Source: Escherichia phage VerenaGrendelmeier_Bas101
DNA length: 64,000 nucleotides
Reading direction: 5' to 3' (one strand)
Sequence record: PQ850631.1
Part shown: positions 1-62,027 of the stretch, in pieces
Layout: each line of letters opens with the position of its first letter
Numbering within the stretch: the stretch's first letter is position 1
Made by a program: the position numbers and the translations under genes
Notes under the pieces: model-generated
What the model saw: the letters and a program-made list of their open reading frames with translations, nothing else
Told to the model about the DNA's origin: nothing
The model's database searches: none

Positions 1-1428
1 ATGTACCAGTTGAATCCTGCTTTAAAAGAAGTCTGGAAGACAAAAGCGCGATACAAAGTAATATACGGCGGTCGTGCATCTTCCAAATCGCATGATGCCG
101 CTGGTTTTGCTATTTATTTGGCGGCAAACTTCAAATTAAAATTTCTTTGCGTGCGACAATTCCAGAACAAGATTTCTGAATCTGTATATACTCTATTAAA
201 AGACAAAATAGAGATTTCTGATTTCAAAGATGAGTTCAATTTATTAAAGAACTCTATTGAACATAAAAGAACTAAATCTGAATTTCTATTTTACGGTATC
301 GCACGTAACGTTGATGAAATCAAATCAACGGAAGGTGTTGACGTCCTTTGGTTGGAAGAAGCGCACGCGCTTACTGAAGAACAGTGGGACATTATTGAGC
401 CGACAATCCGTAAAGAAGGGTCCGAAATATGGATCATCTTTAACCCTGATGAAGAGGCTGATTTCGTCTACCAAAACTTTGTTATGCGACCGCCGAAGAA
501 TGCCATTGTTAAAAAGATAAACTGGCAAGACAATCCATTTTTGTCGCAAACAATGCTGGACGTTATTGCAGGCATGTACGAGCGTGACCCGAAAAAGGCA
601 GAGCACGTTTATGGCGGCGTGCCGAAGACTGGCGGCGACAAATCTGTAATCAACCGCGCATTCGTTAAGGCCGCTCTTAATCTCCACAAACACCCTACGC
701 TGGGATGGAGTTTGTCAGGGTCTAACCGTATAGGCTTTGACGTAGCGGACGATGGCGACGACCTTAACGCCACTGCATTCGTCACAGGAAACGTATTGCG
801 CGGCATCAAGACTTGGGAAGGTCTGGAAGATGAATTGTTGAAATCGGCAAGCGGAGTTTGGAAAGATGCGCTTACATTTGGCGCTTCTATAACTTATGAC
901 GCCATCGGTGTCGGCGCTTTTGCTGGTTCAAAATTTGATGAACTAAACGAGTATGCAATACATGAAAATCCATCATTTCCAAGAATCGAATTTAATGCGT
1001 TCAACGCGCAAGGGTCTGTTGATGATCCTGATGACGTTTTTCTTGAGCTACCACACGTTGAAATACTCAATAAAGACCATTTCGCAAACATAAAAGCGCA
1101 AAAGTGGACTGAAATTGCAGAGAGATTCAGAAAGACATACGAATATGCAACTGGGCAAGCCGTATATCCGACTGATGAATTGATTTCAATCGACACCGAT
1201 GGTATACCGGAACTTGGGATTCCAGCTTGGACTACTGAAGAGATTGAGACGTTTCTTTTTGAGATGTCAGCGCCGCGCAAAGATACGTCTGTTCTTGGCA
1301 AGTTCAAAGTTGAATCCAAAAAGGATATGGCAAAGCGTGGAGTCAAATCACCTAACAAAGCGGACGCAGCAATCATGGCATTGATGAAACCAATTGTTGC
1401 AGCATCCGGCTTCTTCTCTAACCTTTAA
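1..1428 (+). CDS. terminase large subunit
   Basis: 475-aa ORF starting at window base 1; N-terminal P-loop-like KVIYGGRASSKSHD; directly upstream of portal-like gene. Confidence 0.7.
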   Translation: MYQLNPALKEVWKTKARYKVIYGGRASSKSHDAAGFAIYLAANFKLKFLCVRQFQNKISESVYTLLKDKIEISDFKDEFNLLKNSIEHKRTKSEFLFYGIARNVDEIKSTEGVDVLWLEEAHALTEEQWDIIEPTIRKEGSEIWIIFNPDEEADFVYQNFVMRPPKNAIVKKINWQDNPFLSQTMLDVIAGMYERDPKKAEHVYGGVPKTGGDKSVINRAFVKAALNLHKHPTLGWSLSGSNRIGFDVADDGDDLNATAFVTGNVLRGIKTWEGLEDELLKSASGVWKDALTFGASITYDAIGVGAFAGSKFDELNEYAIHENPSFPRIEFNAFNAQGSVDDPDDVFLELPHVEILNKDHFANIKAQKWTEIAERFRKTYEYATGQAVYPTDELISIDTDGIPELGIPAWTTEEIETFLFEMSAPRKDTSVLGKFKVESKKDMAKRGVKSPNKADAAIMALMKPIVAASGFFSNL

Positions 1429-6551: not shown

Positions 6552-6584
6552 ATTCATCGGCAAAGGATTGCCGCGAGTTTTATA

Positions 6585-6850
6585 CGTATAATGACGTATC
6601 ATCCGTATCAAGTAAGTTGTTGTTTTCAAAAGAATCTTACGGATGATACGCGTTGCCGCCGTACCATATAGGAATTCAAATAAATTAATTTAAAATTATA
6701 TATCTAATTTAATTTTATTTTTTTATAAACTCTTATATATGAAAAGTATCCGTATCATCCGTATCATCCGTAGCACACCAGTGATAGCGCGACTTATACA
6801 CCGATACGGATAAAAATACGCCTCATTTTATCCGTATCATCCGTATCACA
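6585..6850. repeat. control region A: conserved 14-mer CGTATAATGACGTA, 9-bp ATCCGTATC iterons and AT-rich tract
   Basis: 14-mer at 6585-6598; iterons at 6597-6610, 6637-6666 (inverted), 6748-6773 (three tandem units), 6803-6812, 6828-6848; AT-rich 6670-6745. Confidence 0.6.
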
Positions 6851-6905
6851 CTAATAAAGGCGCGGCTATATCGGTTGTTATACATATTCAAACCATAATT
6901 ATTGT

Positions 6906-6934
6906 TTGCCTAAGTTTTTTTCATTAGATATAAT
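6906..6934 (+). promoter_or_regulatory. sigma70-like promoter (TTGCCT-17-TATAAT) for head/tail operon
   Basis: -35 TTGCCT 6906-6911, -10 TATAAT 6929-6934, 24 nt upstream of the start of 6958..8379. Confidence 0.5.
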
Positions 6935-6957
6935 ACACAATACTTATTTGAGGGTGG

Positions 6958-10153: not shown

Positions 10154-10178
10154 TTGCTGTGATTACACAGTAAAACAC

Positions 10179-10208
10179 ATGGGGCGTGGTCGAAAGGCTT
10201 CGCCCCAT
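10179..10208 (+). terminator. stem-loop after capsid gene (no clear U-tract)
   Basis: ATGGGGCG / CGCCCCAT 8-bp stem with 14-nt loop, 26 nt after the capsid stop. Confidence 0.3.
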
Positions 10209-10268
10209 ATCAATAGACCTCAAGGGCTGTAGGGGCTTATCTGAGGCTTATATAAATAGGACTACAAA

Positions 10269-16703: not shown

Positions 16704-17263
16704 TGGACTTCGTTTCGATTCTGCTTTCTGGTCAATCTTTGACCATAACGAATGAGTCAACAGGTCTTCCTGTCTGGACAAGGCTTTCACCTGTTTCTGC
16801 AGAAATAACATCCCCAGCAGAAACAACTCAATTCCCTCTTGCTGGTACAGCCATGCAGGTTGTCGAAGTATCAAGCACGTCATCAGTAAGCAATTTACAG
16901 GCGGCAAAGGTTGTAATGCCAGCCCATATGGCGTTAAACGTAATTTGCAATGACCAGTCTACAATTGAAAATATCATAAATTCATTTGATGATGACGAAG
17001 TCACATTTTCAATAACTTCACGAAGCATCATTGCCAGTAAAATGTCGATGTCCGACGTTGAAATAACCCAGTCAGAAGAAAACTTGAATGGAGTCTCAAT
17101 AGTAATAACCTTCGAGCAAACGTCATTTAGCATTCAAGGAAGCTTCGACCCTAAACAATCTGCAGACGAATCATCAAATGGTGTTGCTATTAAAGAACCA
17201 GTCAGTTTGACTACAACTGTGAGTTCGTTATATAATAAAATAAAATCAACAGTAGGAATATAA
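16703..17263 (+). CDS. hypothetical tail protein
   Basis: 186-aa ORF. Confidence 0.4.
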   Translation: MDFVSILLSGQSLTITNESTGLPVWTRLSPVSAEITSPAETTQFPLAGTAMQVVEVSSTSSVSNLQAAKVVMPAHMALNVICNDQSTIENIINSFDDDEVTFSITSRSIIASKMSMSDVEITQSEENLNGVSIVITFEQTSFSIQGSFDPKQSADESSNGVAIKEPVSLTTTVSSLYNKIKSTVGI

Positions 17264-17684: not shown

Positions 17685-19865
17685 GTGTCTGACTCATTAG
17701 AAAAATTTGTGCTTCAATATACGGTGGACTTGAAAGAGTCCATCAATCGTCTTGAGCAATTGCAAGATAAGGTTGATCAGACAAACAAAAAGGCGAAATC
17801 CGCTGGCAAAGATTTCTCTGGAGCATTCAAAGATGTTTTTGGCGAGCTAAAGCCGCTTACTGGTGAGCTAGGGTCAATTGACGGAATACTTGCGCGGCTG
17901 ACATATCGTTTTGCCGCGCTCGTTCCTGTTGTCGCAGGATTGGCCGTCGTCGTCAAATCCATCGTTGATGTTCGAAAAGAATACGAAGCGCAAAGAAAGC
18001 TTGGTTTTGAAGCCGGACTCTCTCCAATGGGCGTCGAACAACTACAACGACAGTTGAATGAAAGTTCAGGTGGCATCCTTGGCGCACAGGGGTCGCGCGA
18101 TTTAATCAGCAAAGCTTCTAATCTGGCATTCAATGCATACACCAACCCCGATGTGATGAACAAGGACAACTTGTTGTTGAACAAGATGGGGACAAGTCCT
18201 TTCAACAGTAACGGCGGCATCAAAGACACGAATCAGCTGCTTGATGAAATTGGAACAAAGCTGAGAAGTGTGAATGAGCAAACCGCTCGTGCTATTGGTG
18301 CTCTGGCAGGTTTTACCGCCGATGAAGTCCGCGCCCTTCGCGAGCGCAACCAGTCTGTGAAAGAAAGCACACGCATAAGCGATGAGGAAACGGCAAAGCT
18401 GCAGCGCCAACAAGCTGCTCTTGAGACTATACGAAATAGTATGGGGCAAATTCAAGAAGATTGGCGGCGTATTGAACTGGTTATCGGTGAAAACGTTATG
18501 CCTGCATTCTCGACGCTTGTCAGCAAGACCGCCGATACAGTCGAAGGATTCCAGATGATGTTCCAAAGAATGTCTGACGGATGGAGCGAATTTGTCGACA
18601 ATTTCATCGCTGACTTGAAACACCCGTTTGATAAACAGGCGGCTGTTAACGAGCGTCACGAGCGTGCCGTTGATAGATGGATCACGCAGATGGCCGAAGG
18701 CGATGTGAAACGCCAGAGGAACCAGGAGCAAAACGCTGCTGAACAACGCTCTGCACAGGCTCTTTTTACTCGCGATATCAACCTGTTTTCAAGTGCCGTT
18801 TCAACCTTTGCTGGCGTGATTGATGAGCGTCAAGCTTGGGCGGCATGGGCAGGTGAAATCGGGCGCAGCGCAGGGCAATCCGCGATGCCTGGAACACCAG
18901 CATTGAATACTGGCGCGACCGTAGGGAATAATCTTGGGTCAGGGAATCCGACAGCATATGACTCAATATATGAGGAAGCTTCAAAACGCTATGGCATACC
19001 TGTAGCGATGATGAAGGCTGTAACTGAAGTCGAATCTGGATTCAATCCAAATGCTGTGAGCGGAGCAGGCGCGACTGGTTTGATGCAAATCATGCCTTCT
19101 AACTTCAAGGGTCTTGGAATAACAGATGGTAATGATCCTCGACAAAACATTATGGGCGGCGCTCAACTTTTGAAAGAGTATCTGAACGCCGCCAACGGCG
19201 ATTGGAATCTTGCGCTGACGATGTATCACGGCGGCTACGACCGAAGCGGCTGGGGCAAGAACACACGCGCGTATCCTGGAAAGGTGATGGCCGCTCTCGC
19301 CCGACAATCCAATGGCGAGTATGCCACGACAGCGCCGCAAGGTGCACCAGTTACTCCAGTACTTAGCGGTAGCGGAGCGGAAGCGCCAAAGGGCCGTTAT
19401 GCACCAGTACAAGGTCAATCGCGCCAAACGGTGCAATACAGGCAATTGCAAGAAGCCATTGCAGGATACCTGAACGTACCAGTTGAGCAGTTGATGCAGG
19501 GACAAGTCAACAAAGGTGATATTGACTTTGCTCAAACTTACCTTAAGCTTGGCACGCAAAGGGATTATATTAAAAACATGCAACTGGCTTCAACTCCAGG
19601 TGTAAGACCGAACATTCAAGCCGAAGCTATGAAAAACGCTCGTCTTGCTGCATTCCAACTTGAAGCATTCCAGAAATACGGCGGCGACCTTTCCGCGAAT
19701 AGTCGACCTGGTGGGCGTGATATTACTATGGGTCAGAAAAACGTTGTCATCAACATCAACGGCGCTCAAGACCCACGCAGCACGGCATTCGAAACGAAAC
19801 GAGTGCTTGAACAAGATGATATCAACGACATAAACAACCTTACTGCTACACCTTTGAAGTGGTGA
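17685..19865 (+). CDS. tape measure protein with lytic transglycosylase (SLT-like) domain
   Basis: 726 aa; coiled-coil-like N-terminal half; VESGFNPNAVSGAGATGLMQIMPSNF...GGAQLLKEYL resembles SLT active-site region. Confidence 0.65.
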   Translation: MSDSLEKFVLQYTVDLKESINRLEQLQDKVDQTNKKAKSAGKDFSGAFKDVFGELKPLTGELGSIDGILARLTYRFAALVPVVAGLAVVVKSIVDVRKEYEAQRKLGFEAGLSPMGVEQLQRQLNESSGGILGAQGSRDLISKASNLAFNAYTNPDVMNKDNLLLNKMGTSPFNSNGGIKDTNQLLDEIGTKLRSVNEQTARAIGALAGFTADEVRALRERNQSVKESTRISDEETAKLQRQQAALETIRNSMGQIQEDWRRIELVIGENVMPAFSTLVSKTADTVEGFQMMFQRMSDGWSEFVDNFIADLKHPFDKQAAVNERHERAVDRWITQMAEGDVKRQRNQEQNAAEQRSAQALFTRDINLFSSAVSTFAGVIDERQAWAAWAGEIGRSAGQSAMPGTPALNTGATVGNNLGSGNPTAYDSIYEEASKRYGIPVAMMKAVTEVESGFNPNAVSGAGATGLMQIMPSNFKGLGITDGNDPRQNIMGGAQLLKEYLNAANGDWNLALTMYHGGYDRSGWGKNTRAYPGKVMAALARQSNGEYATTAPQGAPVTPVLSGSGAEAPKGRYAPVQGQSRQTVQYRQLQEAIAGYLNVPVEQLMQGQVNKGDIDFAQTYLKLGTQRDYIKNMQLASTPGVRPNIQAEAMKNARLAAFQLEAFQKYGGDLSANSRPGGRDITMGQKNVVININGAQDPRSTAFETKRVLEQDDINDINNLTATPLKW

Positions 19866-19869
19866 TAAT

Positions 19870-20742
19870 TTGAAAAAGAGAATCCTTAAAGTCACCTTAT
19901 CTATGCCGGATGGCACAAGCCAAGTGCTTGATGAAGGATTGATGCTTAGATGCCGAATCAAAAAGGCAGCACTTTCCGTGCAAAATAAGGCCACAATCGA
20001 AGTCGCAGGATTGACAGGGTACTTAAGAGAGTACCTGCTTTCCAACTTCACCGCATTCAACAAACGTCTGCGTGATCAAGGCCAATTGGCGGCGAATTAT
20101 GTCAACGTAACAATTGAAGCTGGATATAGAGAAGGCAACGTTGTTAGTAGCAACTTAGTCTACAAGGGGCAAGTCACAACGGTCGAGATAACAGCGCCGC
20201 CGCCGAACATCGTCATACGCATCACTTGCTACACCAACCAGATAAACAGGACTAAGTTTATCACTCAAGCTGCACCGTCAAACCCAACATTCAAAGAGTT
20301 TGTGGAGTGGTCGGCAAAGCAAATGGATATTGATACTGTTATATGCGATACTTCGATTAACAATCAGCGCCTTGTTAACCCAGGCCGCACAACATATGTT
20401 GCAGCCGCCTTGTTGCTTGAGATTCAGAACTATCAAAGGAACTCTATTGCGGCATATATCGATGATGATACGCTCATCGTCAAGGATAAAGACAAAATTC
20501 TGAATCCAGAACAGATAACGGTGATTGAGGAATTTGTCGGAATACCGATGTGGAACGAGTGGGGTGCTGACTTCACTTGCATGTATAACGCGGATTTGAA
20601 GCTTGCCCAAGGTGTGAAATTCAAATCAGTCTTAAACCCAAGCTTGAACGACACCACATTTGTCATCATGCAACTTGAATATGATTTAGCAAGTCGTGAT
20701 GATATATTTACGGTGACGGGCGGCGTTGCACCATCGGCCTAA
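19870..20742 (+). CDS. hypothetical baseplate/tail protein
   Basis: 290-aa ORF after tape measure. Confidence 0.4.
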   Translation: MKKRILKVTLSMPDGTSQVLDEGLMLRCRIKKAALSVQNKATIEVAGLTGYLREYLLSNFTAFNKRLRDQGQLAANYVNVTIEAGYREGNVVSSNLVYKGQVTTVEITAPPPNIVIRITCYTNQINRTKFITQAAPSNPTFKEFVEWSAKQMDIDTVICDTSINNQRLVNPGRTTYVAAALLLEIQNYQRNSIAAYIDDDTLIVKDKDKILNPEQITVIEEFVGIPMWNEWGADFTCMYNADLKLAQGVKFKSVLNPSLNDTTFVIMQLEYDLASRDDIFTVTGGVAPSA

Positions 20743-20744
20743 AT

Positions 20745-21266
20745 ATGAGAAAGAATAAAGTAATTGAGCTGTTTGGAGTTACTTATGAAATACATCAATT
20801 CAGCGCAATAGACGCGTTTGAAATGGTTGATGCGATAAGCATATTAACTCCACTTGAATTATTAAGTGAATGTCATGTTATTAAATATGACGGAACTAAA
20901 GTCAGATTAAACTCTGAGAAGGCCATCAGTGAAGAAGTGAAAAGTGTGCCAAATCACTTGCCGCCCAACCTTGTATTGAAAGTTCTAATGGAAGCGGTAA
21001 AGAAGCACAATTTTGGATTCCTCAGTGATTGGAAAGGCACTAAGATTCCAAATAGATTCTTGGCTGACGTCCCGACCGTAGAGCCTAATTATCTTGAGCC
21101 GATGGTTGCAAGCCTAATAAACAATGGTCTTGCTTCGTTAAAAGAATTGGAAGAATATTATTCATTGCGTGATGCATTCGCTATGTTTGATGGACTAATA
21201 GCAAAATCACTTAATGAAGCCTACTCAAACGAAGCTGCCATTAAAGAATCAAAGTCAAATCGCTAA
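20745..21266 (+). CDS. hypothetical baseplate/tail protein
   Basis: 173-aa ORF. Confidence 0.4.
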   Translation: MRKNKVIELFGVTYEIHQFSAIDAFEMVDAISILTPLELLSECHVIKYDGTKVRLNSEKAISEEVKSVPNHLPPNLVLKVLMEAVKKHNFGFLSDWKGTKIPNRFLADVPTVEPNYLEPMVASLINNGLASLKELEEYYSLRDAFAMFDGLIAKSLNEAYSNEAAIKESKSNR

Positions 21267-21270
21267 AATA

Positions 21271-21299
21271 TTGCTTATAGACTCCTTATAGATTATAAT
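21271..21299 (+). promoter_or_regulatory. sigma70-like promoter (TTGCTT-17-TATAAT) inside tail module
   Basis: -35 TTGCTT 21271-21276, -10 TATAAT 21294-21299. Confidence 0.5.
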
Positions 21300-21324
21300 T
21301 TGTTGATCAGATATAAGGAGTCTA
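21278..21324 (+). promoter_or_regulatory. 13-bp perfect inverted repeat spanning promoter -10 and downstream RBS
   Basis: TAGACTCCTTATA 21278-21290 and TATAAGGAGTCTA 21312-21324; right arm contains the AAGGAG RBS of the next gene. Confidence 0.5.
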
Positions 21325-22052
21325 TGATGGCAGAGAAGTTAACTCAACTTACAAGCCCCAACCAAACTGACAAATCAAGTATGTTTGCCGCGCTGCAGGG
21401 AATGCTGGATCGTGGCAAGTATACCACTGACGGCATGATTCCTGCACAAGTAATATCTTATGACCGCAAACAGAATTTAGCAGTCATAAAGCCTGTTATT
21501 CATTTCGTAAGTCTTGATGATAAACCAGTGGAGCGTCAACCTCTGGTGTCAATTCCTGTATTGGCAATCGGCGGCGGCGGCTTTGTAATCAACTTTCCTT
21601 TGAAAGAAGGTGATTTGGGCTGGATATTCGCTGGCGACCGCGAGTTGTCGACATTCCTTGAAGAATTGAAGCCGACCGCGCCTACCAATGGTCGCGTGAA
21701 AACTTTCGCTGATGGACTGTTCATACCGGATGTATTCCGAAAATACACCATAAGCGGAGAGGATGCAGGCTCAATGGTAATTCAGTCACTCAGCGGCGCT
21801 GTACGAATTGCATTAAGTGATGACTCGATAAACATAACCGCATCAGCTGGGGTAAACGTGAAAACACCAATCACCACTATCGACCAACAACTGATAGTGA
21901 ATGGAAAGGCAACATTCAATGGTGGTATAGAAGGGAAAGAAGGAACGACGGCAACGCTTCCGACTGGCACCACAATCGGCGGCACAAATGTATCCACTCA
22001 CGGGCACATAGGTAACGGACCTGGAAACAGAACTGGGGACATGATAGAATGA
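21324..22052 (+). CDS. putative baseplate spike/hub protein (gpV-like)
   Basis: start moved to ATG 21324 behind AAGGAG; Gly-rich C-terminal region; by position. Confidence 0.4.
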   Translation: MMAEKLTQLTSPNQTDKSSMFAALQGMLDRGKYTTDGMIPAQVISYDRKQNLAVIKPVIHFVSLDDKPVERQPLVSIPVLAIGGGGFVINFPLKEGDLGWIFAGDRELSTFLEELKPTAPTNGRVKTFADGLFIPDVFRKYTISGEDAGSMVIQSLSGAVRIALSDDSINITASAGVNVKTPITTIDQQLIVNGKATFNGGIEGKEGTTATLPTGTTIGGTNVSTHGHIGNGPGNRTGDMIE

Positions 22053-23320
22053 GTGCACAATATTCTTACATAGTAAGCACTGGTGTAATAACCATCGACA
22101 CAGCCGATTTGCTGGCTGACGTTCAGAATGAATGGATTGAGTCATTAGGGGTCGGGCTTGACGTTGATGCATCGACACCGCAAGGCACCCTAATCGCGAC
22201 AGAGACTTTGGCAAGAACTTCAGTCATGAAGAACAACGCCGAGCTGGGAAGTCTCATCAACCCTAATTATTCATATGGCGTATACCTTGATGCCATCGCG
22301 GCACTGCTTGGTATTGAGCGAACGAAAAACATCAGCACGATGTTGAAAGGAATTACCGCAGAAGGAACGCCGCTGTTGGAAATTCCTGCTGGAAGTTTGC
22401 TGACGGATTCAAACGGCACATACTGGTATGTTCTTGAAGACGTTCAAATCACTTCGACTGGCAAGACAAGCAACATGACTCTTGCATCAAAAGATTATGG
22501 CTCATTTACGGTTGCCCCTGATGAAGAGTTTACAGTGGTGCAAGGTTATGACGTCATCGGATGGTCAAGAACGTATTCAACATCAGCAACGACGACTGTG
22601 CCAGGAACGCAATACATGGGCGACGGAGCGTTAAAGGCCGCTCGCGTTAAGCGTCTTTACCAGCAGGGCATTGCATCGCTTGGTGCCATTCGCGCTCGCG
22701 CCATGTCGGTCGACGGCGTGGAATCTGTGATGGTCGTGGAGAACGACACGGGATTGCCTGGAACGGTACGCGGCATCACCTTTTCAACGCCTAACGGTGT
22801 TTGGGTGTGCGCAAGCGGAACTTTCGATAAGCAAGTTTTTGCTGAGACTATTTTCAAAGCGAAAATGGGCGGCCAGCCGTGGGACTTTGGTGCTGCCAAC
22901 CAGGGCAATCCAGTCAACTCTCCTGATGGAATAGAAGTTGTCGACGAAGAATCACAACTGTCTTATTTCGTGAAGTTCAACACTGCAGTAATATATGACT
23001 TGTATGTCGATATTACTGTTTCAAGAGGCACCGCAACCGCCGATGCGGAATCTATTATTGCCGCTGTGTTGAATTACGGCAATGGCAATTTTAACGGTGA
23101 GCAAGGGTATACAGTAGGTCAATCTCAATCTTCTTTTGAAATTGCTTCAGCAGTGTCTTGCGAGTATCCAGGCTTGTATATTAAAGATTGCAAAATTGCA
23201 GCAGTTAAAAGCGGACAGGCAGCGCCAAATTATCCATCCGATTACGGCAGCGAGTGGATTGCCAATCCTTGGGATAAGGCGAATACTATGCGCGGCTTCA
23301 TCAACGTTAAATTTGTGTGA
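22049..23320 (+). CDS. putative baseplate protein (J-like)
   Basis: 423-aa ORF coupled to upstream gene; by position. Confidence 0.4.
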   Translation: MSAQYSYIVSTGVITIDTADLLADVQNEWIESLGVGLDVDASTPQGTLIATETLARTSVMKNNAELGSLINPNYSYGVYLDAIAALLGIERTKNISTMLKGITAEGTPLLEIPAGSLLTDSNGTYWYVLEDVQITSTGKTSNMTLASKDYGSFTVAPDEEFTVVQGYDVIGWSRTYSTSATTTVPGTQYMGDGALKAARVKRLYQQGIASLGAIRARAMSVDGVESVMVVENDTGLPGTVRGITFSTPNGVWVCASGTFDKQVFAETIFKAKMGGQPWDFGAANQGNPVNSPDGIEVVDEESQLSYFVKFNTAVIYDLYVDITVSRGTATADAESIIAAVLNYGNGNFNGEQGYTVGQSQSSFEIASAVSCEYPGLYIKDCKIAAVKSGQAAPNYPSDYGSEWIANPWDKANTMRGFINVKFV

Positions 23321-29342: not shown

Positions 29343-29370
29343 AGTATAGGCCGAAGGTTTTGAAAGTAAA
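29343..29370 (-). promoter_or_regulatory. sigma70-like promoter (TTTACT-16-TATACT) for 28769..29311 cassette
   Basis: minus-strand reading: TTTACT (plus 29365-29370), 16-bp spacer, TATACT (plus 29343-29348). Confidence 0.45.
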
Positions 29371-40196: not shown

Positions 40197-40261
40197 TTAT
40201 TTATCCTTTTTGGACTTCATTTCGATGAGATAAATATAACTCATCGAAACGCACAAGTAAA

Positions 40262-42394: not shown

Positions 42395-42414
42395 TTTCGT
42401 TTCCTCTATGAGTT

Positions 42415-42458
42415 CTGCTTCAATGATTAAAGTATACGCCCATTGAAGCAGAAAGCAA
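42415..42458 (-). promoter_or_regulatory. promoter (TTGCTT-16-TATACT) with flanking 11-bp inverted repeat (operator-like)
   Basis: minus-strand -35 at plus 42453-42458, -10 at plus 42431-42436; arms CTGCTTCAATG 42415-42425 and CATTGAAGCAG 42441-42451 bracket the -10. Confidence 0.5.
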
Positions 42459-42459
42459 A

Positions 42460-47344: not shown

Positions 47345-47372
47345 TTGCTTTTATTTTCATAGCAACTATAAT
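47345..47372 (+). promoter_or_regulatory. sigma70-like promoter (TTGCTT-16-TATAAT)
   Basis: -35 47345-47350, -10 47367-47372. Confidence 0.45.
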
Positions 47373-54716: not shown

Positions 54717-54763
54717 AAAAAGGTGAGCTATATGCTTGCCTTTTTATTTGACTGTATTATACT
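54717..54763 (+). terminator. terminator-promoter cassette, copy 2
   Basis: near-identical to copy 1: stem 54722-54740, U-run, TTGCCT 54736-54741, 16-bp spacer, TATACT 54758-54763. Confidence 0.55.
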
Positions 54764-61998: not shown

Positions 61999-62027
61999 TT
62001 TACTTCTTCGTACACTAAGACTATAAT
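61999..62027 (+). promoter_or_regulatory. sigma70-like promoter (TTTACT-17-TATAAT)
   Basis: -35 61999-62004, -10 62022-62027; paralogous to promoter at 61601. Confidence 0.5.

Follow-up and report, generated by a model that had tools for sequence, protein, structure and literature searches.

The spike gap and its inverted repeat

In a 64,000-nucleotide (nt) stretch of Escherichia phage VerenaGrendelmeier_Bas101 (sequence record PQ850631.1), which as a whole is called the window below, we analyzed the gap that precedes the baseplate spike gene. The window represents a Wifcevirus-like Escherichia coli myovirus, and the approximately 5 kilobases (kb) around the inverted repeat described here are 90 to 98% identical to those of 28 E. 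coli and Shigella Wifcevirus myoviruses, a comparison set that includes TH32, Bas98–100, WFC, WFH, ECML-117, and FEC19 (window coordinates run approximately 6 nt behind those of phage Bas99). The spike gap begins at the TAA stop codon (21264–21266) of a 173-amino-acid gene, occupies positions 21267–21326 (57–60 nt), and is the sole real intergenic space from 14.26 to 28.5 kb, where the other junctions are tight. It holds an inverted repeat, a promoter, and the ribosome-binding site (RBS) of the spike gene with its Shine–Dalgarno (SD) sequence. The features at the locus are as follows.

20745–21266, plus strand: upstream gene, 173 amino acids, function unknown, phrog_4774, homolog Bas99_0027
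21271–21276, plus strand: −35-like hexamer TTGCTT, 17 base pairs (bp) upstream of the −10 hexamer
21277–21290, plus strand: left arm of the repeat, ATAGACTCCTTATA, inside the promoter spacer
21294–21299, plus strand: −10 hexamer TATAAT, in the hairpin loop; ortholog of TATACT in promoter P018 of Pseudomonas phage 14-1 and kept in 25 non-redundant orthologous gaps
21305–21307, plus strand: predicted transcription start, 6–8 nt past the −10 hexamer and between the arms, placed by analogy with P018
21312–21325, plus strand: right arm of the repeat, TATAAGGAGTCTAT, holding the SD AAGGAG (21315–21320) and the first ATG
21272–21332, plus strand: full predicted read-through helix, with outer and inner stems of 16 and 5 bp separated by a bulge, and with 4 more pairs in some contexts
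21327–22052, plus strand: baseplate spike gene, likely start at the second ATG (21327), alternative start at 21324

An earlier note on this DNA had described two 13-nt segments, TAGACTCCTTATA (21278–21290) and TATAAGGAGTCTA (21312–21324), as perfect reverse complements 21 nt apart. They are exactly as first described, and each perfect arm extends by one further base, giving 14-bp arms separated by 21 nt. Among the perfect inverted repeats of the window that have a loop of 60 nt or less, it is the longest. Using 200 dinucleotide-preserving shuffles of the window, we found that perfect arms of at least 14 nt are expected only 0.015 times per shuffle, and that arms of at least 13 nt are observed four times versus 0.06 expected. 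A chance origin is therefore excluded. The arm was also considered as a dispersed genomic motif, but this idea was rejected because it recurs at only 13 sites with three or fewer mismatches versus 9.9 expected.

The left arm ends 3 nt before the TATAAT box, in keeping with its earlier description as lying just upstream of it. The further claim that the right arm contains both the RBS and the start codon holds for the RBS and only partly for the start codon. There are two adjacent in-frame ATGs, of which the first (21324) lies inside the perfect arm and the second (21327) lies outside it. On sequence grounds the second is probably the real spike start: at 6 nt its distance from the SD is more favorable, the start in Pantoea phage Kyle aligns with it, and the Bas99 gene is annotated as beginning there. 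This codon is nevertheless covered by the extended RNA helix described below. Within the left arm, positions 21282–21288 read CTCCTTA, which matches the 3′ terminus of 16S rRNA exactly, such that the left arm would be a literal mimic of the anti-SD sequence.

The internal promoter and its ortholog in phage 14-1

Judged by the promoter family of this genome and by a mapped ortholog, the spike gap carries a real promoter of the sigma70 type. The family, with the consensus TT[GT][AC][CT]T-16..18-TA[TG]A[AC]T, is represented by 16 sites in the window versus 1.25 in shuffles; 9 or 10 of these sites fall within the 8% of the window that is intergenic, and 21271–21299 is one member. The same −35 sequence, TTGCTT, is found at a 16–17 bp spacing from TATAAT or TATACT in the gaps at 2180, 47345, and 42458 (minus strand). 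The family sites include 2180–2208, 6906–6934, 47345–47372, 54736–54763, 61999–62027, and 29343–29370 (minus strand), the common boxes being TTGCTT, TTGCCT, or TTTACT at −35 and TATAAT or TATACT at −10. Three copies near 61.5–62.0 kb have in common a longer conserved block (GTGCTTTACTTCTTCGTACACT...TATCGAGA).

In Pseudomonas phage 14-1, a primary 5′ end was mapped at 28318 in the orthologous gap by ONT-cappable-seq (Putzeys et al. 2024, PMC10914365; bioRxiv 10.1101/2023.10.13.562163, Tables S3 and S5). The corresponding promoter, P018, belongs to the sigma70 class, and the sequence upstream of its start reads ...CCTGGGAAGGCTATACTAGACCTGC (PMC10914365; bioRxiv 10.1101/2023.10.13.562163). In E. 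coli and Pseudomonas aeruginosa cells that were not infected, a P018 reporter construct yielded significant msfGFP expression (PMC10914365), and the transcription unit TU018 runs from P018 through gp42 (spike) and gp43 (wedge) (PMC10914365; bioRxiv 10.1101/2023.10.13.562163). The 14-1 start site follows the −10 hexamer by 8 nt, precedes the ATG by 19 nt, and falls between the two arms of the helix in that phage.

The two loci are alike in that the promoter sits in an orthologous gap between homologous genes in the same order, has its start between the helix arms, and drives the spike and wedge genes. They differ in that the −10 hexamer of P018 is TATACT and its arms, GGGAAGGCT and AGGCTTTCCC, contain two G–U pairs. 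Because the P018 analog starts there, we expect the window start at approximately 21305–21307, between the arms, and promoter-initiated RNA would therefore lack the left arm. The earlier proposal that transcripts from this promoter are without the left arm is thus supported by a family-matched promoter and a mapped ortholog. The excerpts of Putzeys et al. covered by a limited literature check make no mention of a hairpin or a translational effect at this site, and keyword searches in the same check turned up no account of the helix. The phage-specific 'CTGGG' motif of 14-1 was set aside as an explanation for the promoter: it occurs in the PB1-like gap and is absent from the window, and the same source places P018 in the sigma70 class.

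Read-through transcripts would require an upstream promoter, for which we identified a candidate.

17207–17236, plus strand: upstream site TTGACT-18-TATAAT, strongly promoter-like with 11 of 12 matches, located within a tail gene at its 3′ end

This site lies immediately ahead of the gene that comes before the lytic tail protein gene and is the positional counterpart of the mapped 14-1 promoters P016 and P017. By this analogy it is the likely source of read-through transcripts that enter the spike gap. A terminator scan returned no convincing intrinsic terminator between 14.3 and 21.3 kb. The spike-gap hairpin was itself rejected as an intrinsic terminator: its A+T-rich stem is followed by GATGGCAGAG and lacks a U-run, it was not called in the scan, and no terminator was mapped at the 14-1 ortholog. 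In the 14-1 data no termination site was called anywhere from 6.7 to 35.5 kb of 14-1, a region where long transcripts were poorly captured (PMC10914365).

Predicted folding of read-through and promoter-initiated RNA

The earlier note had suggested that read-through RNA could fold and hide the RBS, and had named folding of the two alternative 5′ ends as a check. When read-through RNA (21255–21358) was folded, the minimum free energy was −30.5 kcal/mol (z = −5.21), and none of 200 shuffles was as stable. Promoter-initiated RNA beginning at 21306 gave −6.8 kcal/mol (z = 0.12). On read-through RNA, the model pairs the left arm and the bases beside it with 21311–21326, and on to 21332 in some contexts, covering the SD and both ATGs. 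Beyond the perfect arms, the helix continues with a U–G pair at 21276/21326 and, after a 2-nt bulge, with pairing of 21272–21275 to 21329–21332. Bases 21313–21325 have an unpaired probability below 0.01.

We expressed masking as an opening energy, defined as the free energy needed to make positions −14 to +3 around the start codon single-stranded in a −70 to +35 context. For read-through RNA the predicted values were 19.4 kcal/mol (first ATG) and 22.9 kcal/mol (second ATG), compared with 1.8–5.2 kcal/mol for RNAs with 5′ ends at 21303–21310. The spike start has the most extreme value among 87 mapped genes (median, 5.6 kcal/mol; standard deviation, 3.3; next highest, 12.2). Shuffling the segment upstream of the −10 hexamer lowered the opening energy to 7.3 ± 2.1 kcal/mol (maximum, 17.7), and none of 1000 shuffles reached the observed 21.3 kcal/mol; in this set of calculations, RNAs with 5′ ends at 21303–21310 gave 3.7–5.2 kcal/mol. 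An in silico mutant of the left arm (CTCCTT to AGGAAA) likewise reduced it from 21.3 to 7.3 kcal/mol. These models, together with the recurrence of the helix in distant relatives, agree with the earlier suggestion that the RBS is hidden on read-through RNA. A search of Rfam 15 over 20500–22200 on both strands gave no match at E ≤ 1.

Conservation and compensation in relatives

Of the 28 Wifcevirus genomes, 24 share an identical 63-nt gap despite up to 10% divergence over the surrounding 5 kb. Three single changes were examined among the four variant records, and these fall in the loop (21305 and 21310) or in the second innermost pair (21313). More distant spike protein homologs are found in Pantoea phage Kyle (58% identity), Serratia phage MTx (52%), Salmonella phage PCSE1 (47%), and PB1-like Pseudomonas phages (44%), all of which have the same gene order and a gap of 55–67 nt at the spike junction. 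Approximately 30 non-redundant IMG/VR viral contigs (62–73 kb) also have the gap, with the near-consensus promoter TTTAC(T/C)-17/18-(GC)TATAAT. The gap is missing from 36–48 kb contigs of other kinds of phage, in which the hub and spike genes directly adjoin. The arms of the orthologous helices are given below, left arm first; some related lineages are denoted by L numbers.

Pantoea phage Kyle: ACCTCTTACAGTA / TACTGTAAGAGGT
L034: TCTCTCCCGGTG / CACCGGGAGAGA
L037: ACTCCATGAC / GTCATGGAGT
L044: GCACCCGCT / AGCGGGTGC
L057: AGCCATCCGT / ACGGATGGCT; the right arm covers the ATG
Serratia phage MTx: TATAATATC, which is the −10 hexamer itself / GATATTATA
Salmonella phage PCSE1: TCCTTTATT / AATAGAGGA; one G–U pair
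PB1-like phages: GGGAAGGCT / AGGCTTTCCC; two G–U pairs

Across genera, the arms have wholly different sequences and their complementarity is kept. Because arm positions shift between lineages, we relied on alignment-free tests rather than on column-by-column covariation. Neither the shuffle test nor the swap test requires an alignment; the −10 hexamer in the PB1-like loci and in L050 was set by hand, using the mapped start. Among 25 non-redundant gaps, the median predicted opening energy was 12.4 kcal/mol for read-through RNA versus approximately 6 kcal/mol for promoter-initiated RNA, and the start site was masked beyond shuffles of its own upstream segment (p ≤ 0.05) in 15 of the 25. In the swap test, every lineage's downstream half was joined to every lineage's upstream half; the cognate upstream half masked best in 10 of 25 lineages, where one would be expected. 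It ranked second in three more, in two of which it was beaten by a sister lineage.

In 12 of 16 hairpin-bearing lineages, the sense strand gives a more stable fold than the antisense strand, and G–U pairs account for 28 of the 275 pairs to the start region. The left arm may lie upstream of the −35 hexamer, in the spacer, or over the −10 hexamer, whereas the right arm is always on the SD or AUG, also in lineages with leaders of 25–27 nt. Because the arms are unrelated yet compensated and include G–U pairs, these patterns, as read from sequence and folding models, favor an RNA structure aimed at the translation start over a protein-binding palindrome.

The same data bear on whether the palindrome acts as DNA, either as an operator for a dimeric phage or host regulator, as the earlier note had alternatively proposed, or as a cruciform through which the internal promoter would be controlled. 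The core, which encloses the −10 hexamer, has perfect symmetry, and the invariance of the gap within Wifcevirus would suit a regulator-binding site. Nevertheless, we regard a DNA-level role as very improbable. Arms of 14 bp whose centers are 35 bp apart are unlike those of usual operators, and the arm sequences show no relationship from one relative to another or between the three bracketed promoters of the window (see below). Moreover, the right arm always coincides with the SD or AUG, the G–U pairs of the orthologous helices are possible only in the sense RNA, which also folds better than the antisense strand, and P018 of 14-1 is active in the reporter assays without any phage protein.

A side observation concerns L057 (IMGVR_UViG_3300048898_000066, approximately 1056–1100), in which the spike ATG lies only 7 nt past TATAAT. 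Promoter-initiated mRNA would be leaderless in this lineage, and on read-through RNA the L057 arms listed above form a perfect 10-bp helix that encloses the ATG.

Proposed mechanism and points that weigh against it

The spike gap appears to carry two superimposed signals, namely, a sigma70-type promoter at the DNA level and an anti-SD strand at the RNA level. The internal promoter would start RNAs at approximately 21305–21307, in which a leader of 18–21 nt is followed by the spike, wedge, and downstream tail genes. Its spacer would encode the anti-SD left arm, which would be present only on transcripts from upstream promoters, such as the site at approximately 17.2 kb. On such read-through RNA, the left arm would form a helix of approximately 20 bp that takes up the SD and start codons and largely keeps 30S subunits off the spike start, while internally started RNA without the left arm would have an open start site. 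Because only internally started transcripts would have this open start, expression of the spike and downstream genes would be set by the internal promoter and not by read-through. The wedge gene is probably affected as well because its start overlaps the spike stop. The purpose may be independent dosage or timing of the spike and baseplate proteins.

Taken together, folding models and the analogy with P018 make it reasonably probable, in our estimation, that read-through masks the spike RBS and that RNA from the internal promoter exposes it. The anatomy of this arrangement, a promoter combined with an RBS-masking helix, is well supported, and lower translation from read-through RNA is a strong prediction of the folding models. 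The start site in the window, the read-through RNA itself, and the size of the translational effect are what we infer from these comparisons.

Several findings weigh against this reading. The promoter is present without a significant masking helix in 10 of the 25 lineages, and the helix must therefore be dispensable or replaceable; the promoter is common to all, and the helix is an addition that many lineages have and others do without. A leader of only approximately 20 nt is so short that any hairpin bracketing the −10 hexamer and start must overlap the SD. Two more promoters in the window have inverted repeats that bracket the −10 hexamer without covering the SD, and thus bracketing of the −10 hexamer itself, rather than SD masking, may be the selected feature. 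Finally, structural genes are served by the upstream promoter and the internal one alike, each of them sigma70-like, and the temporal logic known from phage T4 is not evident.

The bracketed promoters also favor a different role, in which the hairpin is a general element for RNA end formation, stability, or processing at internal promoters (a stem protecting the 3′ end of the upstream message, or an RNase III site that parts it from the downstream message) and covers the SD only incidentally, owing to the very short leader. The two other promoters have perfect repeats of 10–13 bp around the −10 hexamer with the SD left free, and for 2 of 17 promoter-like sites the bracketing duplex energies lie in the 0.08% and 1.1% tails of the background. 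RNase III sites of the T7 or lambda type contain a double-stranded region of roughly 20 bp or more, and the window helix, at approximately 21 bp with a 3-nt bulge, is near this length; cutting might even release the RBS, such that read-through RNA would be translated after processing. However, most orthologous helices are 9–14 bp and too short for RNase III. Where leaders are 25 nt or longer (MTx-like phages, L041, and L043), the 3′ arm lies at the SD/AUG end and not beside the start site, and the variable left arm opposite a right arm that always covers the start region likewise weighs against this role. The other two bracketing repeats are also not conserved outside Wifcevirus where this could be checked. 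We therefore consider a processing role unlikely.

A masked RBS could alternatively serve as a conditional transcription stop, in which polymerase loses its coupled ribosome and Rho ends the upstream unit inside the spike gene; its main role would then be to insulate transcription units and not to control the output of spike protein. Such an outcome would follow from established Rho polarity if the RBS is masked. Downstream starts overlap preceding stops, so translation of those genes depends on the spike start, and no intrinsic terminator separates the units. In contrast, the first 80–100 nt of the spike gene have no unusual excess of C over G (70th to 80th percentile of the structural module), and the 14-1 data include no called termination site in the region concerned, with the limited capture of long transcripts noted above. 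A Rho-dependent role for the hairpin strikes us as quite unlikely.

Returning to masking of the RBS on read-through RNA, we also considered whether a ribosome terminating on the upstream gene is coupled to the helix as a conserved feature. This possibility was rejected because the left arm lies 9 nt past the stop codon in some relatives and up to more than 25 nt past it in others. In the window, a ribosome at the upstream stop would open only the outer pairs of the helix.

Other bracketed promoters in the window

The first of the two additional bracketed promoters lies in the gap 42395–42459 (minus strand) and consists of TTTGCT/TTGCTT, a spacer with TTCTGCTTCAATG, TATACT, and then CATTGAAGCAGAA. 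Its 13-bp arms (42413–42425 and 42441–42453) are perfect, and the right arm ends 8 nt before the SD GAGGAAA, such that the RBS stays free in the predicted fold. This gap is identical in the four Wifcevirus contigs checked, and homologs are found only within Wifcevirus. The second, in the gap 40197–40261 (minus strand) upstream of a FabG-like gene, has TTTACT-17-TATATT with perfect 10-bp arms, TTTCGATGAG and CTCATCGAAA, around the −10 hexamer; the SD is 17 nt further on and uncovered. Relatives of MTx have an equivalent promoter (TTGACT...GATAAT) with a small palindrome, GGCCAAGGATGGCC, inside the spacer instead, and other relatives have no promoter at this position; bracketing is lost outside Wifcevirus.

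A more speculative and, in our opinion, rather doubtful extension is that the PB1-like/Wifcevirus supergroup uses hairpins around the −10 hexamers of internal sigma70 promoters as a general design to mark or silence read-through RNA at unit boundaries. The spike hairpin would then be a translational insulator that resets baseplate and tail-fiber expression, which compensatory changes would have maintained from genus to genus to serve something other than early/late timing (e.g., assembly stoichiometry or avoidance of premature spike synthesis).

The tail module and further noncoding regions

The spike gap is embedded in a tail and baseplate module, in which gene starts downstream of the spike overlap the preceding stops. 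In addition to the two genes that flank the gap, the module includes the following genes.

17685–19865: lytic tail protein gene
19870–20742: baseplate hub gene, E217 gp41 family
22049–23320: Baseplate_J wedge gene, whose start at 22049 overlaps the spike stop

In Pseudomonas phage LBL3 (L018, 2194–2202), the depositors join the spike-adjacent wedge gene over a run of 9–10 G residues whose length varies between subpopulations, a putative case of frameshifting or phase variation.

Two other noncoding regions of the window are rich in repeats or hairpins. The gap that follows the major head protein gene (10154–10268) contains two strong hairpins, one formed by ATGGGGCG...CGCCCCAT and one at approximately 10220–10255, and folds with −44.6 kcal/mol; these may act as a terminator or attenuator that sets a high ratio of head protein to downstream products. 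A noncoding region of approximately 400 nt (6552–6957), located between a 45-amino-acid open reading frame and the head maturation protease gene, contains many direct and inverted units of the CCGTATCATCCGTATC type (6596–6613, 6638–6650, 6748–6773, 6803–6815, and 6826–6850) that flank a very A+T-rich stretch at approximately 6680–6740. Two of the four perfect inverted repeats of 13 bp or more in the window fall within this region, as does the promoter-like sequence TTGCCT-17-TATAAT at 6906–6934. From its sequence, the region looks like an iteron/origin or multi-operator region.

Comparison with known systems

Phages of the genera Pbunavirus and Wifcevirus are often considered for phage therapy and use host sigma70 promoters throughout. 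To our knowledge, they have no clear late switch, and the regulation of their structural genes is poorly understood. A conserved RBS-masking helix at an internal promoter validated in 14-1 would provide a testable point of post-transcriptional control for the spike and the baseplate proteins that follow it. For genome engineering, it would also mean that the spacer of the spike-gap promoter is not free sequence, and reporter or payload insertions in the gap are predicted to change spike translation.

Among intergenic elements that combine a hairpin with a promoter, the promoter-coupled terminators (Fletcher et al. 2026, preprint, 10.64898/2026.08.19.745784) are similar to the spike gap in that a stem-loop palindrome and a promoter occupy one intergenic DNA between tandem genes. 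In these elements, the stem-loop forms the −35 element, a T-tract lies in the spacer with the −10 hexamer directly behind it, and termination occurs approximately 10 bp upstream of the start (10.64898/2026.08.19.745784). We rejected membership in this class because the spike gap has its −10 hexamer in the loop, its 3′ arm downstream of the start, and no U-tract.

The closer precedent is provided by the T4 genes e (lysozyme), soc, 49, and I-TevI, as well as Aeh1 mobE, for which transcripts from upstream promoters carry both helix strands and have the SD and/or AUG hidden (PMC3014915). The promoter in these cases lies in the DNA encoding the 5′ strand, and its transcripts lack that strand and are translated (PMC3014915). 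The spike gap likewise has its left arm in the promoter region, a start site between the arms, and a right arm over the SD and AUG. Sequestration of the SD and start codon on upstream transcripts is predicted here by folding, and a start of the inner promoter between the strands is indicated by the 14-1 ortholog. The systems differ in several respects. The T4 promoters are gp55-dependent late promoters (TATAAATA, with no −35 element) that belong to a later temporal class, whereas the spike-gap promoter is of the sigma70 type with a −35 element, has a 14-1 ortholog that is active in uninfected cells, and gives no sign of such a later class. In T4 the arrangement separates early from late expression of toxic or intron-encoded genes, while here tail and baseplate genes lie on both sides. 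Finally, there is no sequence homology between the two, and the phages belong to different lineages.

With these differences, the predicted working of the spike gap matches the control known from T4 gene e; what is new is the class of promoter, the baseplate spike as the target, and the phage lineage. A mechanism known mainly from T4 would thereby extend to an unrelated group of phages and to another class of promoter.

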